From Candidatus Hadarchaeum sp. (GTDB lineage: Archaea; Hadarchaeota; Hadarchaeia; Hadarchaeales; Hadarchaeaceae): a stretch of DNA of 29,001 bases. The first letter of the stretch is position 1. Each line of letters opens with the position of its first letter. Location: positions 1-29,001 of the forward strand of contig NZ_JBMFOX010000015.1 of assembly GCF_049969415.1 (NCBI RefSeq), read 5' to 3'. Made by a program: the position numbers and the translations under genes. The notes under the pieces are model-generated. The model searched no databases and was not told the DNA's origin. It saw only the letters and a list, made by a program, of their open reading frames with translations. This document shows, piece by piece, positions 7,890 to 11,660 of this stretch.

Positions 7890-8428
7890 TACTCGATGCC
7901 CTTCCGCGCCGGGATCCCTTCCCGGGCGGGGTGCTTGACGTCCTCGATCACCGAGACGAAGTCCGCCCGGTCGATCAGCGCCCGGGGAGCCCTCCGCCCC
8001 GTGAGCATGACCACCGTGGACGGCGGCACCCTGTCCAGCAGCTTGAGCACATCTTTGACCTTGACCAGCCCGAAGGCGGCGGCCAGGTTGATCTCGTCCA
8101 GCACCAGCAGCTTCGGCCTCTTCCGCAGCGCCTTTTTCGCGAACTCCAGCCCCTCCTGCGCCAGCCGGTAGTCCTCCGGGGCCGGGTGCTTCGGGTCGAC
8201 GAATTCCTTGCGCCCGAACTGGTAGACCTCACACTCCGGGGCCAGCCGGCGGCAGGCCTTCACCTCGCCGATGTCCTCCCAACCCTTCATGAACTGGATG
8301 ATGATGACCTTGTAGCCGTGCCCGATGGCCCGGAGCGCAAACCCGAAGGCGTTGGTGGTCTTGCCGCCCCCCTCCCCGGTGTAGAGGTAGACCAGCCCCT
8401 GCTTCCTCTTAGTAGCCTTCCTCGCCAC
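7886..8428 (-). CDS. cobO: Cob(I)yrinic acid a,c-diamide / cob(I)alamin adenosyltransferase (CobA/CobO/BtuR type)
   Basis: YTGEGGGKTT, IIQFMKG, LVLDEIN, LTGR.AP and KHP...GI.ARKGIEY. Confidence 0.93.
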   Translation of the reverse strand: MARKATKRKQGLVYLYTGEGGGKTTNAFGFALRAIGHGYKVIIIQFMKGWEDIGEVKACRRLAPECEVYQFGRKEFVDPKHPAPEDYRLAQEGLEFAKKALRKRPKLLVLDEINLAAAFGLVKVKDVLKLLDRVPPSTVVMLTGRRAPRALIDRADFVSVIEDVKHPAREGIPARKGIEY

Positions 8429-10523
8429 CGGGATGCCCCCCTGAATAATTCGGCTCGGCCCGGATAAACTTCTCCTCGGGCGGCGTCAGCGCCGATTGCG
8501 GTGAGATCGATAGCACCTGCCTCGCCTTGCTCCCGTAGCGGTAGACGGTGATCCCCTTGCACCCCAGCTCGTGGGCCAGCAGGAAGGCCCGCCTCACCTC
8601 CTCGGGCGTGGCCTCGGGCGGCAGGTTGATCGTCTTCGAGACCGCGTTGTCCGTGTGCCGCTGAAAGGCCGCCTGCATCCTCACGTGCCACTCGGGCGAG
8701 ACATCGAAGGCGGTGACGAAGATCCTCCTGACATCCTCCGGGATCTCCTCCACCCCCTTGATCGAGGCCAGCCGGGACAGCTTCACCATGAGCTCGCGGC
8801 TGTAGAACCCCCGCCTGGTGGCAATTTTCTGAAACGTCTGGTTGACCTCGACCAGCTGGATGCCGCTCATGACGTTGCGGATGTAGGCCACGGCGAAGAG
8901 GGGCTCGATGCCGCTGGTGGTCCCAGCGATGATGCTGATGGTGCCCGTGGGAGCGATGGTCGTCACGGTGGCATTTCTCAGGCACCGGTAACCTCGCTTC
9001 TCCCAGAGGCTGCCCGGGAAGGCGGGGAAGGAACCCCGCTGCTCGGCCAGCTCGACGGACATCTGACGGCCCTCCTCGGAGATGAACTTCATCACCTCGT
9101 CCGCCTGCCGCAGCGCCTCCTCCGAGCTGTAGGGGATGCCCAGCTCGAGCAGCATCTCGGCGAAGCCCATCACGCCCAAGCCGATCTTCCGGGTCAGCTT
9201 GGTCATCCGCTCGATCTCCGGAATGGGATACCTGTTGACGTCAATGACGTTGTCGAGGAAATGCACCGCGTTCCTCACGGTCTCCCTCAGCTTCTCCCAG
9301 TCAACTTCCCCCTCCCTGATCATCCGGGAGAGGTTGATGGAGCCCAGGATGCAGGACTCGTAGGGTAAAAGAGGCACCTCACCGCATGGGTTGGTGGCCT
9401 CGATCTGGCCCAGCTGCGGCGTCGGGTTGTGCCGGTTGATCTCGTCCAGAAAGATCAGCCCGGGGTCACCGGTCTTCCAGGCCATGTTGACGATGAGGTC
9501 GAAGACTTCCTTCGCCCGCAGCCGCCTCTCAGCACTTCCCGTCCGCGGGTTGATCAGATCATATTCCTCATCATTTTTCACCGCCTCCATGAAGGCGTCC
9601 GTCACCCCGACCGAGATGTTGAAGTTGACCAGCGCGTCCTCCTTGACCTTGGCGGTGATGAACTCGAGGATGTCGGGGTGGTCGACCCGCAGCACCCCCA
9701 TGTTGGCGCCCCGGCGCTTGCCCCCCTGCTTGATCACGTCGGTGGCCACGTCGAAGACCCGCATGAAGGAGACCGGTCCGCTGGCCACCCCCTTGGTCGA
9801 CCTGACGATGTCGCCGGCGGGCCGCAGCCGGGAGAAGGAGAAGCCCGTGCCGCCCCCCGACTGGTGGATGAGCGCCATCGTCTTCAGGGCGTCGAAGATG
9901 CCGACCATGGAGTCCTCGACCGGGATGACGAAGCAGGCGGCCAGCTGCCCCAGCGGCGCCCCAGCGTTCATCAGCGTGGGGCTGTTGGGGAGGAACTCCA
10001 GGTTGGCCATCATCCGGTAAAACTTATCCTCAGTGCCGCTGAGGTCGGTCGCGCCGTGGAGCCCGTCGGCCGCGGCCACCGCCCTCGCCACCCGGCGGAA
10101 GAGCTGTGATGGGGTCTCGATGATCTTGCCCTGTTCATCGCGCAGCAGATAGCGGCGCTGGAGCACCCGGATGGCGTTGAGGTTGAGCTTCAGGTCGTCG
10201 CTCACGCCCAGCATCGCCTTGGCGGCCCTCAGCTCCGCCCGCTGCTGCCGGTAGAGGATGTAGGCCCGGGCGACGTTCGCGTAGCCGTTCTTGATCAGGA
10301 CCTCCTCCACCGTGTCCTGGATGTCCTCCACGCCCGGAATCCTCCCGGTAAACTTTTTCTCCAGGATCTCGGTCACCTGCGCGGTGAGCCGCCGAGCAAT
10401 TTCTCCGTCGCCGGTGCCGGTGGCGTTGAAGGCCTTGAGAATGGCGTTGGCTATTTTCTCGGCCTCAAAGGGAACCACCCGCCCATCCCGTTTCCTGATC
10501 CTCTCAATCGTCGCCATCGGCAC
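8409..10523 (-). CDS. nrdJ: Adenosylcobalamin-dependent (class II) ribonucleotide reductase with N-terminal ATP cone
   Basis: ATP cone (IRKRDGRVVPF...KI), FLPNSPTLMNAG, QLAACFV, GGGTGFSFS, KRRGANMG, TNPCGE, TIAPTGT and KGITVYR. Start is GTG 10523 or ATG 10517. Confidence 0.95.
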   Translation of the reverse strand: MPMATIERIRKRDGRVVPFEAEKIANAILKAFNATGTGDGEIARRLTAQVTEILEKKFTGRIPGVEDIQDTVEEVLIKNGYANVARAYILYRQQRAELRAAKAMLGVSDDLKLNLNAIRVLQRRYLLRDEQGKIIETPSQLFRRVARAVAAADGLHGATDLSGTEDKFYRMMANLEFLPNSPTLMNAGAPLGQLAACFVIPVEDSMVGIFDALKTMALIHQSGGGTGFSFSRLRPAGDIVRSTKGVASGPVSFMRVFDVATDVIKQGGKRRGANMGVLRVDHPDILEFITAKVKEDALVNFNISVGVTDAFMEAVKNDEEYDLINPRTGSAERRLRAKEVFDLIVNMAWKTGDPGLIFLDEINRHNPTPQLGQIEATNPCGEVPLLPYESCILGSINLSRMIREGEVDWEKLRETVRNAVHFLDNVIDVNRYPIPEIERMTKLTRKIGLGVMGFAEMLLELGIPYSSEEALRQADEVMKFISEEGRQMSVELAEQRGSFPAFPGSLWEKRGYRCLRNATVTTIAPTGTISIIAGTTSGIEPLFAVAYIRNVMSGIQLVEVNQTFQKIATRRGFYSRELMVKLSRLASIKGVEEIPEDVRRIFVTAFDVSPEWHVRMQAAFQRHTDNAVSKTINLPPEATPEEVRRAFLLAHELGCKGITVYRYGSKARQVLSISPQSALTPPEEKFIRAEPNYSGGHPGGEEGY

Positions 10524-10591
10524 AGCCCCAGAAGCCTCAACCCAATTTACTCCGCCCGGCTATTAAATCAGCACCGTTTCACCGTGAATTT

Positions 10592-10860
10592 GGCCCCCGA
10601 TGTCCCTGACACAACTAACCAGCGAGCTTCATCAACTGTCGTTCCGACAAGCTTCACTCGCCAACCCTCGATGGCAGGTTTTTCTCGGGGGCCGTGTCCA
10701 CCTGTCCCGCACCAGGGTTGGCTTCAGGATCATCGCCTTAGACGATCCCGCCAGTAACTCTCCGAAGGACCCAATTTGGCGCGTCTGTCGGTGGACCCGC
10801 TCGAGTGTCGCCGCGATGATGCACCGGCGATCACGGTCTCACGCCAGCTCTCGATTCCCG
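10592..10860 (-). ncRNA. Candidate large structured RNA (unknown family; cis-leader of nrdJ-cobO or independent ncRNA)
   Basis: At least eight helices plus a 9-bp crossing pairing, found by eye. G-U wobbles and purine-rich loops favour the minus strand. TATA-like ATTTAAT (minus) lies near 10881-10887. Confidence 0.5.
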
Positions 10861-10994
10861 CGGCCTGTCCCTTCATTGCAATTAAATGTGGATTCTCTCA
10901 GGACTAAAGATTTACGATGGCGGCCCGACCGCACATTTTTTGAAATAAGATGGGTTTTTATTCGGGCTGAAGTAGAGTTAAGGGAGGATGAAAC

Positions 10995-11660
10995 ATGGCG
11001 AAGAAGGCCCAGTATGTGATCATCGCCGGCGGGGGCAGGGTGGGCTCCCACCTGGCCAAGATACTTGAGCCCAGCGGCAGGGACATCGTGATCATCGAGA
11101 AGGATCCCGAGGTCTGCGAGAAGCTGTCCTCGGAGCTCAACGCCCTGATCATCTGCGGTGACGCCACCGACAAGAAGACCCTTGAGGATGCCAAGATCCA
11201 GATGGCCGATGTCTTCGTCGCCGCCACCGGGAACGACAACGAGAACATTGTCGCCAGCCAGCTGGCCAAGTACACCTACAAGGTTCCCCTAGTCATGGCG
11301 CGCGTGGAGGACATGGACCGGGCGAAGATGCTTCGGGGCATGGGGATAGACCTGATCGTGAGCCCCTCACACGTCGCCTCGCTGGTCTTTGAGAACGCGA
11401 TCGCTCTGCCCAACACCACCTCGATCCTGGTTTCGGAGACCATCACCCGGGCGGTTGAGGTAACCGTTCCCGGGGACTCCAAAGTCCTGGGCAAGAGGAT
11501 CAGGGACCTCAACCTGCCGCTGGAATGCGTTATCGCCGTCATCTACCGGGGCGGGAAGCTGATACTGCCTCACGGGGACACGGTGATCAAGCCCGGTGAC
11601 ATCGTCGCCCTGATCGGCAAGGAAGAGGCCATCAGAAAGACGGTAGAGATCCTGAAGTGA
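10995..11660 (+). CDS. trkA: Trk K+ uptake system NAD-binding subunit (RCK_N + RCK_C)
   Basis: IIAGGGRVG Rossmann motif, GDATD, AATGNDNEN, and a C-terminal IAVIYRGG..ILPHGDTVI..GD. GGGAGG RBS upstream. Confidence 0.93.
   Translation: MAKKAQYVIIAGGGRVGSHLAKILEPSGRDIVIIEKDPEVCEKLSSELNALIICGDATDKKTLEDAKIQMADVFVAATGNDNENIVASQLAKYTYKVPLVMARVEDMDRAKMLRGMGIDLIVSPSHVASLVFENAIALPNTTSILVSETITRAVEVTVPGDSKVLGKRIRDLNLPLECVIAVIYRGGKLILPHGDTVIKPGDIVALIGKEEAIRKTVEILK

Follow-up and report, generated by a model that had tools for sequence, protein, structure and literature searches.

Pab40, Pf7, Pho40 and Afu4 are archaeal small RNAs reported to carry three H/ACA motifs each (PMC2377435). In RNAs of the Pab40 type, motif 1 is described as guiding position 2588 of Pyrococcus abyssi 23S ribosomal RNA (rRNA) and motif 3 as guiding position 2016 in stem-loop 69, while 2678 is given as the expected true target of motif 2 in Pf7 and Afu4; another site predicted for motif 2, P. 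abyssi 278 (Pf 302), is listed as unmodified and inactive in vitro (PMC2377435, Table 1). Halobacteria are reported to retain homologues of Pf7 stems II and III (PMC2584109). Here we describe a related element in a stretch of 29,001 nucleotides (nt) from the archaeon Candidatus Hadarchaeum sp. (contig NZ_JBMFOX010000015.1), which we refer to as the window. The structured stretch upstream of nrdJ in this window, at about 10591-10881 on the minus strand, is a separate small RNA gene of about 290 nt. It is very probably the Hadarchaeia orthologue of Pab40/Pf7/Afu4, the family that Rfam calls HgcG, and thus an independently transcribed box H/ACA guide small RNA (sRNA) with three modules. We assign it to this family because its architecture, a set of sub-threshold matches to HgcG and its predicted targets point the same way. 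Our literature search turned up no report of H/ACA RNAs from this phylum.

Structure, distribution and family resemblance

We aligned 28 homologues, omitting two loci cut by contig ends (L011 and L019), and the counts of sequences given below refer to this set. RNAalifold found 60 pairs in the alignment, 33 of them with compensatory changes. The final structure was drawn by hand from the same alignment and hence leans towards it; its margin over controls is still large. It has 14 helices and 79 pairs, of which 44 change on both sides; 89.0% of cells are paired, and the covariation score is 0.325. None of 500 shuffles reached this structure on any measure, and sliding the 3' partners by 1-3 columns left only 36-44% of cells paired and 14-21 compensatory pairs. 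Homologues and covariation, both of which had been proposed as checks when the element was first noticed from the sequence, are therefore present. Comparison of folding with shuffles, proposed alongside them, favors the minus strand and amounts to weak evidence: the single-sequence fold of that strand reaches -128 kcal/mol (z = -1.71; 4 of 100 dinucleotide shuffles as stable), against z = +0.26 for the plus strand (58 of 100 shuffles as stable). Single-sequence minimum free energy is a weak discriminator.

The structure consists of three modules, each built from base to tip of a basal helix, an internal loop bearing ACA on its 3' strand, a lower stem, a large internal loop and an upper stem. 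The large internal loop of each module carries invariant sequence, and the upper stem ends in tandem G.A pairs. The apical element is a kink-loop (K-loop) in module 1 and a kink-turn (K-turn) with a short C-stem hairpin in modules 2 and 3. From 5' to 3', the features of the RNA are as follows.

10870-10881, minus strand: 5' strand of Kt-1, a box C/D-like K-turn (C-stem UUGC, bulge AAU, GA, then AGG), with G, C, AUGA and G invariant in 28/28 sequences
10806-10864, minus strand: H/ACA module 1 (helices 3-4, 96-97% paired, 8 compensatory pairs)
10858-64/10810-16, 10842-48/10823-29 and 10830-41, minus strand: module 1 lower stem, upper stem and K-loop, respectively
10849-57, 10817-22 and 10806-08, minus strand: module 1 5' guide, 3' guide and ACA, respectively
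10797-10805, minus strand: 3' strand of Kt-1 (C U C GA GC GG), box D-like, forming the linker after the module 1 ACA, with GAGC invariant or nearly so
10697-10795, minus strand: H/ACA module 2 (helices 5-9, 19 compensatory pairs)
10790-95/10697-702 and 10778-83/10708-13, minus strand: module 2 basal helix and lower stem, respectively
10759-67/10722-34 and 10735-58, minus strand: module 2 upper (GA) stem, with one bulged U, plus K-turn, and its C-stem hairpin, respectively
10768-77, 10714-21 and 10703-05, minus strand: module 2 5' guide, 3' guide and ACA, respectively
10592-10693, minus strand: H/ACA module 3 (helices 11-14)
10685-93/10592-600 and 10671-78/10605-12, minus strand: module 3 basal helix and lower stem (one mismatch), respectively
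10653-61/10621-33 and 10634-52, minus strand: module 3 upper (GA) stem plus K-turn, and its C-stem hairpin, respectively
10662-70, 10613-20 and 10601-03, minus strand: module 3 5' guide, 3' guide and ACA, respectively
10586-10591, minus strand: 3' tail, U-rich in many homologues, where conservation stops

Helices 3-4, 6-7 and 12-13 are mostly 84-99% paired and carry compensatory pairs; the exception is the lower stem of module 3 (helix 12), at only 66%, and that of module 2 reaches 99.4%. Flanking module 1, Kt-1 fits a box C/D-type K-turn, with a GC/GC C-stem, a 3-nt bulge, tandem G.A pairs and then G-C/G-U pairs, and is a putative element of the mature RNA. Its pairs 35:123, 36:122, 43:118 and 44:117 (helices 1-2) are 100% standard and the two outer ones covary; its 3' strand reads CUGA in several relatives. 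The module 3 guides, CGAGGGUU and GUUAGU, are invariant, and both pair with the helix-69 loop of 23S rRNA.

The original prediction was right about the minus strand, about a K-turn-like UGA/GAU element and, more broadly, about a structured non-coding RNA with a K-turn, roughly 270-290 nt long and encoded on the same strand as nrdJ. All of the complementary segments it listed are found where it placed them, and several are helices of the conserved structure: 10592-10600/10685-10693 is helix 11 (9 base pairs (bp), 90.5% of cells paired, 4 compensatory), 10696-10702/10790-10796 is helix 5 (6/6 pairs compensatory), 10622-10626/10657-10661 is helix 13, supported by conservation and covariation, and 10637-10641/10645-10649 is the apical part of helix 14 and likewise supported. 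Other proposed hairpins are confined to the source genus or give way to better-supported helices. The pairing 10727-34/10741-48 is genus-specific or outcompeted, its place being taken by the K-turn arm of helices 7-9; 10749-53/10777-81 is outcompeted by the module 2 lower stem; and 10801-05/10850-54 and 10808-13/10825-30 are displaced by the lower and upper stems of module 1. The helix 10801-05/10850-54 is itself a pairing between linker and guide: the source-genus linker CUCGAG after the module 1 ACA (10797-10805) is complementary to UCGAG in the module 1 5' guide (10849-10857), both on the minus strand. Relatives do not keep this pairing, as column 119 changes there with no compensating substitution. 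The linker is similar, too, to CCUCGAU, the predicted rRNA target.

The RNA is widespread in the phylum. A BLAST search of related genomes with a 421-nt query spanning the region found matches in 30 of 41, counting the source genome, and in 18 of the 23 of high quality, with 68-91% identity over about 290 nt and an extension to other families of the order. Phylum-wide, BLAST placed the RNA in 47 of 66 genomes. By family, and leaving aside the source genome (G000), the matches fall in f1 (36/45), f2 (6/6), f3 (1/1), f4 (2/9), f5 (1/3) and f6 (0/1); many of the match-less genomes are incomplete. Three genomes have two matches on separate contigs. In G017 (C5, C19) the two are almost full-length (83% and 79% identity), which may reflect a duplicated gene or mixed strains in the metagenome-assembled genome (MAG), and in G021 (C30, C77) and G054 (C46, C57) the paired matches span different halves of the RNA and may be a single gene split across contig ends.

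Scanning one genome per prokaryote species with an exact three-motif pattern returned 46 loci, 41 of them titled Hadarchaeota, Hadesarchaea, Hadarchaeum, Hadarchaeales or Hadarchaeia. The remainder comprise 2 titled 'uncultured archaeon', 1 titled 'Hodarchaeaceae' and 2 in bacterial MAGs, which come without the 5' motif and are probably chance matches. The printed upstream region and RNA start of the locus titled 'Candidatus Hodarchaeaceae archaeon' (L059, JASEGJ010000002.1) are identical to those of L008 (G009), which sits in the same family as the window genome, and the title may be a slip for Hadarchaeaceae.

The family resemblance is visible at the level of Rfam. No Rfam model matches anywhere in the window at gathering thresholds. 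At an expectation value (E) of 10 or less over 10400-11100, the only structured match is HgcG (17.1 bits, E = 0.017, minus strand, 10741-10915), and no cobalamin, other riboswitch, cyclic di-AMP, signal recognition particle (SRP) or RNase P model matches under the same conditions. HgcG is also the sole Rfam family that recurs at the locus, with scores of 17.1-24.1 bits at 11 of 13 relatives' loci. In these matches HgcG motif 1 lies over module 1, and the corresponding part of motif 2 lies over the 3' guide, lower stem and ACA of module 2 (CAACCCU GGUGCGG C ACA); the motif 3 consensus (GGGUUAG ... GUGUUAC) resembles CGAGGGUUAG ... GUUAGU in the RNA described here. The Rfam comparison suggested with the original prediction thus yields a match to a known family that is weak, not strong, and the idea that the RNA was undescribed gives way to homology with Pab40/Pf7/Afu4, as judged from architecture, the HgcG matches and the predicted targets.

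Predicted targets and fit to the H/ACA rules

The source genome encodes Cbf5 (with a DKCLD domain), Nop10, Gar1 and L7Ae-family proteins. Given these genes and the layout of the RNA, we predict that it acts as a box H/ACA RNA in pseudouridylation. L7Ae would recognize the K-turn or K-loop of each module, and Cbf5-Nop10-Gar1 its lower stem and ACA; the two strands lining the large internal loop would base-pair with 23S rRNA so as to flank a uridine, the substrate that Cbf5 would turn into pseudouridine. We observe conservation, the covariation-supported architecture, rRNA complementarity, presence in RNA libraries and the ribonucleoprotein (RNP) protein genes; protein binding, catalysis and the exact targets are predictions.

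We scanned rRNAs for sites of the form 5'-X-UN-Y-3', in which X pairs with the 3' guide and Y with the 5' guide, and ranked the guides of genomes G001, G014, G016 and G025 against their own rRNAs, taking the source genome through its contig C19. The pocket strands can pair around an unpaired 5'-UN-3' at the helix-69 loop, the GGGUUUAGACC site and the UUUGCUACCUCGAU site, with two alternative sites besides. The predicted module 3 target, the helix-69 loop UAAC-UA-UAACCCUC, would pair with 4+8 to 4+10 bp and is the top rRNA site in 4/4 genomes (tied in G001); on C19 the best site for this module is at position 2031 of the large-subunit (LSU) rRNA, UAAC-UA-UAACCCUCGA, with 4+10 bp. For module 2, the favored target GGGUU-UA-GACC in domain V (5+4 bp) ranks first in G001 and second in both G014 and G016, and was not found for this module in G025; the best site on C19 is at LSU 300, GGGGUUG-UA-GGACUC, with 7+6 bp. 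For module 1, UUUGC-UA-CCUCGAU, the predicted target in the peptidyl-transferase region, comes first in G016 only (5+5 bp), and the best site on C19 has 11 pairs or fewer. The UCGAGG guide of L017, L018, L020, L023 and L024 pairs fully with CCUCGA. Unlike in relatives such as L018, the source-genus guide is 1 nt shorter, which weakens pairing with the expected target.

Offsets of 15, 14 and 14 separate the G001 sites at LSU 2031, 2602 and 2692 from P. abyssi 2016, 2588 and 2678, and by this measure the G001 sites would equate to the targets of Pab40/Pf7/Afu4 motifs 3, 1 and 2, respectively. In naming the sites helix 69 or A loop, or by E. coli numbers, we partly presume the correspondence. The target calls are made because the restriction to rRNA, recurrence across genomes and the match to the published family can be taken together.

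The rRNA of the source assembly has features of its own. The 23S rRNA on C19 (G000:C19:15670-20342, L033) is 4673 nt long compared with a 2987-nt model, and it departs from the intron-less G001 sequence right after the helix-69 3' strand (UAACCCUC|GAACAAGG... versus UAACCCUC|UUAAGGUAGCG). A similar insertion occurs at the same position in G025 (G025:C3:22038-25606, L049), and an rRNA intron is the presumed cause. Pairing of the 5' guide of module 3 can reach 2 nt (source genome) or 1 nt (G025) further into this insertion than into the intron-less sequence. The assembly as a whole holds 22 LSU and 5 small-subunit rRNA matches on many short contigs with a G+C of 0.375-0.626 (the rRNA-bearing contigs being C19, C41, C62, C68, C69, C73, C74, C80, C84, C85 and C87). 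Most of these fragments probably belong to other organisms and were binned into the MAG; C19 matches the rRNA of the same-genus G001 where the two were compared.

Two of the guide strands are complementary to one another. The 3' guide of module 2 includes GCCAACCCU (10714-22) and the 5' guide of module 3 includes AGGGUUGGC (10660-68), and the 9-bp pairing between them was what the original prediction had read as a pseudoknot or kissing interaction linking two domains. The pairing is real; the pseudoknot dissolves into two guide strands that are mutually complementary because one pairs with rRNA GGGUU and the other with AACCC. All 9 bp are perfect in the source genus only. Six pairs, AACCCU/AGGGUU (helix 10), are present in 26-28 of the 28 sequences and five of the six never vary, so covariation is silent on this pairing and speaks neither for nor against an intramolecular contact. 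The AACCC/GGGUU complementarity is likewise visible in the Pyrococcus consensus.

The rules reported for archaeal H/ACA motifs call for a lower stem of 7-9 bp and an ACA 14-16 nt from the pair that closes the pocket, a distance given as 14-15 nt in productive P. abyssi guides (PMC4652768, PMC2377435), and for a spacing of 10 layers between that pair and the second G.A (PMC4652768). All three modules have the hairpin layout of lower stem, pocket and upper stem, with covariation, and carry their K-turn or K-loop about 10 layers from the closing pair. Counted individually, module 1 has a GA stem of 10 layers and module 2 one of 9 with a bulged U in addition; that of module 3 numbers 10 if pair 268:310 forms and 9 otherwise. 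The distance from closing pair to ACA is 14 nt in module 1, 16 nt in module 2 and 16 nt in module 3 (17 in the source genus). The tandem GA positions show little or no variation; in the source genus, module 3 has A, not G, at position 2n. ACA is kept in 27/28 sequences in module 1 and in 28/28 in module 2. The lower stems, at 6-8 bp, are short or interrupted, which is non-canonical.

A number of observations weigh against assigning the RNA to this family as a working guide. Its HgcG scores of 17-24 bits lie far under the gathering score of 77 required for membership of RF00064, and two of the 13 relatives' loci (L008, L030) gave no HgcG match. In module 3, the closing pair 268:310 forms in only 14/28 sequences, ACA is absent in more distant families (f2 and others; L021, L022, L025-L029), and the ACA distance of 16-17 nt falls outside the 14-15 nt of the productive P. 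abyssi guides. A further helix, foreign to the canonical model, closes the internal loop around every ACA, and none lies in a free 3' tail or hinge. The targets are ambiguous in places: module 2 has three candidate sites, and the domain I site near 300 (7+6 bp) out-pairs the favored one, while module 1 of the source genus pairs with its expected target by 3 bp from the 3' guide and 6 bp from the guide AUCGAG, which meets CUCGAU past a C.A mismatch, and an alternative site, GAUGC-UA-UCUU (5+4 bp), scores equally there. A genome-wide scan turned up many chance sites of equal or better score (1165, 1237 and 12027 at the threshold used); since such sites are common, complementarity alone proves little. 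The equivalence with the P. abyssi positions comes from offsets and not from an alignment of P. abyssi rRNA. Finally, the RNA-library contigs described below show neither strand nor ends, and both runs come from one study.

A rival explanation is that of an H/ACA-derived RNA whose guide role has been lost or changed, so that it acts as a chaperone of rRNA folding or as an L7Ae scaffold, perhaps closed by the pairing between the module 2 and module 3 guides. The basal helices that enclose ACA and the extra K-turn would suit such a role. So would the absence of ACA from module 3 in some families, ACA spacings of 16-17 nt, beyond the productive range, and the invariance of AACCCU/AGGGUU between modules; in P. 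abyssi, moreover, the domain I site predicted for motif 2 is tabulated as unmodified and inactive in vitro (PMC2377435, Table 1). The counterevidence is that modules 1 and 2 keep ACA almost without exception, that GA-stem lengths match the rule for productive guides, that the RNP protein genes are present in the genome, and that the complementarity between modules follows from the two targets, GGGUU and AACCC, and recurs in Pyrococcus. We consider a lost or altered guide role improbable, and favor the working guide of the Pab40/Pf7/Afu4 family.

Transcription, neighboring genes and the rejected riboswitch proposal

The conserved RNA extends about 20 nt past the boundary at 10860 originally drawn for it, to about 10881 on the minus strand, and a promoter-like element precedes it. 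About 65 homologous loci aligned on GCNAUGA share the box AAAnCTTTTAnCC, with 82-98% A/T at five consecutive positions, and a second A/T-rich box lies at -10 to -3 (10880-10887). Archaeal TATA boxes are usually centered near -26/-27. Judging from these boxes, transcription would start at about 10879-10882 and place GCNAUGA at the 5' end of the transcript. This promoter-like element and the nearest gene are located as follows.

10901-10915, minus strand: box resembling a B recognition element (BRE)/TATA box, GTAAATCTTTAGTCC, about 24-36 nt upstream of GCNAUGA
8409-10517, minus strand: nrdJ, a neighboring gene outside the RNA (TIGR02504, 756.6 bits against a cut-off of 400; Pfam ribonucleotide reductase domains)

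A transcript, which had been named as a further check on the element, is represented among Logan contigs from two sediment metatranscriptome runs. One, of 278 nt (depth 219, 12 differences), corresponds to 10591-10866, and the other, of 234 nt (depth 82), to 10595-10828; neither covers the flanks of the RNA within 10420-11020. Raw reads from two hot-spring metatranscriptomes, about 12% of each run being scanned, gave no match, which carries no weight either way. The 278-nt contig ends two bases past 10866, just upstream of the module 1 lower stem and short of the Kt-1 5' strand. This stop near 10866-10868 may mark the true 5' end, as reported for Pab40 (PMC4652768), or an assembly break at a variable position. 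The 3' end is likely at about 10591, where conservation ends, the last helix closes and many homologues have a U-rich tail.

The product of nrdJ is a B12-dependent class II reductase by its NCBIfam match (TIGR02504), a CobA/CobO/BtuR adenosyltransferase gene lies 3' of nrdJ (Pfam), and the divergent neighbor of the RNA is trkA-trkH (Pfam). We surveyed neighbors by tblastn of the window proteins against the 1.5-kb flanks of the 29 other RNA loci. The gene nrdJ adjoins the RNA in five of these, namely L002-L004 (same genus), L010 and L007, where the arrangement is unlike that of the other nrdJ loci; cobO lies within 1.5 kb in L006 and L007, and trkA stands beside the RNA in 3 same-genus loci only. 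Because adjacency to nrdJ is this rare, and because an AT-rich box, ATTTAATAG (about 10560-10568), lies between the last RNA helix and the nrdJ ATG at 10517, we take the RNA to be a gene of its own. In one relative (G012), about 100 nt upstream of the RNA, there is a sub-threshold match to snoZ267 (L005:1306-1376, minus strand; 31.3 bits, E = 0.028; gathering score 43). Its UGAUG and UGAG boxes are easily recognized, and it may be a neighboring C/D sRNA gene.

These neighborhoods bear on the function first proposed for the element, a cis-acting leader or riboswitch, for cobalamin or another ligand, that would control the downstream nrdJ-cobO operon. The proposal has position in its favor: in the source genus and one other genus the RNA is directly upstream of nrdJ on the same strand, cobO or nrdJ occurs within 1.5 kb in L006 and L007, and nrdJ is B12-dependent. 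With cobalamin riboswitches the RNA further shares a few similar short fragments. Yet 24 of the 29 other loci are without nrdJ within 1.5 kb and conserve the RNA nonetheless, no riboswitch family matches at gathering score or at E <= 10, nrdJ has an AT-rich box of its own that separates it from the RNA 3' end, and the RNA-library contigs stop at 10591-10595 without entering nrdJ. Three K-turn hairpins are also unlike a cobalamin riboswitch, and the invariant loops are explained by rRNA complementarity. On the strength of synteny and the Rfam result we reject the riboswitch, which we rate as very unlikely. Two known RNAs of the right size, RNase P RNA and SRP RNA, are both found elsewhere in the genome above threshold and are rejected as identities on that ground. 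A plus-strand open reading frame (ORF) at 10600-11019 (139 aa) is open in the window and in 3/4 same-genus sequences, and there is next to no chance that it is a protein gene whose coding accounts for the conservation, as it has no Pfam match and overlaps the trkA start, stops fall in all six frames across the core in 14/28 homologues, length differences are not multiples of 3 in 19/28, and substitutions in the helices are compensatory.

Significance and comparison with known guide RNAs

The RNA is a divergent member of a known archaeal family of pseudouridylation guides, and neither a riboswitch nor a new class. Recognizing it removes a false lead, that of a B12 riboswitch or novel regulatory RNA upstream of nrdJ, and adds an uncultured phylum to the range of one of the most broadly conserved H/ACA guides of archaea, which is directed at a helix 69 pseudouridine that is shared with eukaryotes. 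It also shows that the Rfam HgcG model is too narrow: the model misses these homologues by more than 50 bits and could be widened with the 28-sequence alignment. Both the basal helices around ACA and the disappearance of ACA from module 3 count as modest, testable variations on rules derived from Pyrococcus and Pyrobaculum. What is new here is limited to the phylum, the failure of the Rfam model, the lineage-specific basal helices, a possible K-turn at the 5' end and a module 3 without ACA in some families.

We tentatively raise one further idea, in which we place rather little confidence: that Hadarchaeia use a 'clamped' H/ACA variant, with a basal helix sealing the internal loop around every ACA, module 1 held in addition by the 5' K-turn as a fourth L7Ae site, and the module 2 3' guide and module 3 5' guide locking the pockets until substrate arrives. 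The guide lock would consist of the 6 invariant bp, or 9 in the source genus. If the variant existed, Cbf5 would have to recognize ACA in a context outside the current structural model, and a basal helix could replace the box in families without the module 3 ACA.

Among known systems, the closest is the Pab40/Pf7/Pho40/Afu4 family of Thermococcales and Archaeoglobus (RF00064). Three consecutive H/ACA motifs appear to stand in the same order, motif 1 with a K-loop and motif 2 with a large loop (>10 nt); guide sequences are similar as well, with AACCCU on the 3' strand of motif 2 and GGGUUAG and GUUA in motif 3. The predicted targets, by position offset, would fall at P. abyssi 23S 2588, 2678 and 2016 as published. 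Unlike in Pab40, the strand after ACA pairs back as a basal helix (module 2, 6 bp; module 3, 9 bp), module 1 is closed by a K-turn, the lower stems of the Hadarchaeia RNAs are short or interrupted, and the module 3 ACA is lost in some families. The composite sRNA Pab21 likewise combines an H/ACA motif and a box C/D-type K-turn in one transcript (PMC2377435, PMC4652768); unlike Pab21, the RNA described here has only a putative C/D-like K-turn clamp around module 1 (GCNAUGA ... GAGC), and we recognized no C'/D' boxes or methylation guide in it. Two proposed targets, the helix 69 pseudouridines and a domain V site described as equivalent to H. marismortui 2621, are shared with the halobacterial hairpins HP1 and HP2, which are homologous to Pf7 stems II and III (PMC2584109). 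Unlike HP1 and HP2, the Hadarchaeia RNA holds all three modules adjacent in one RNA.

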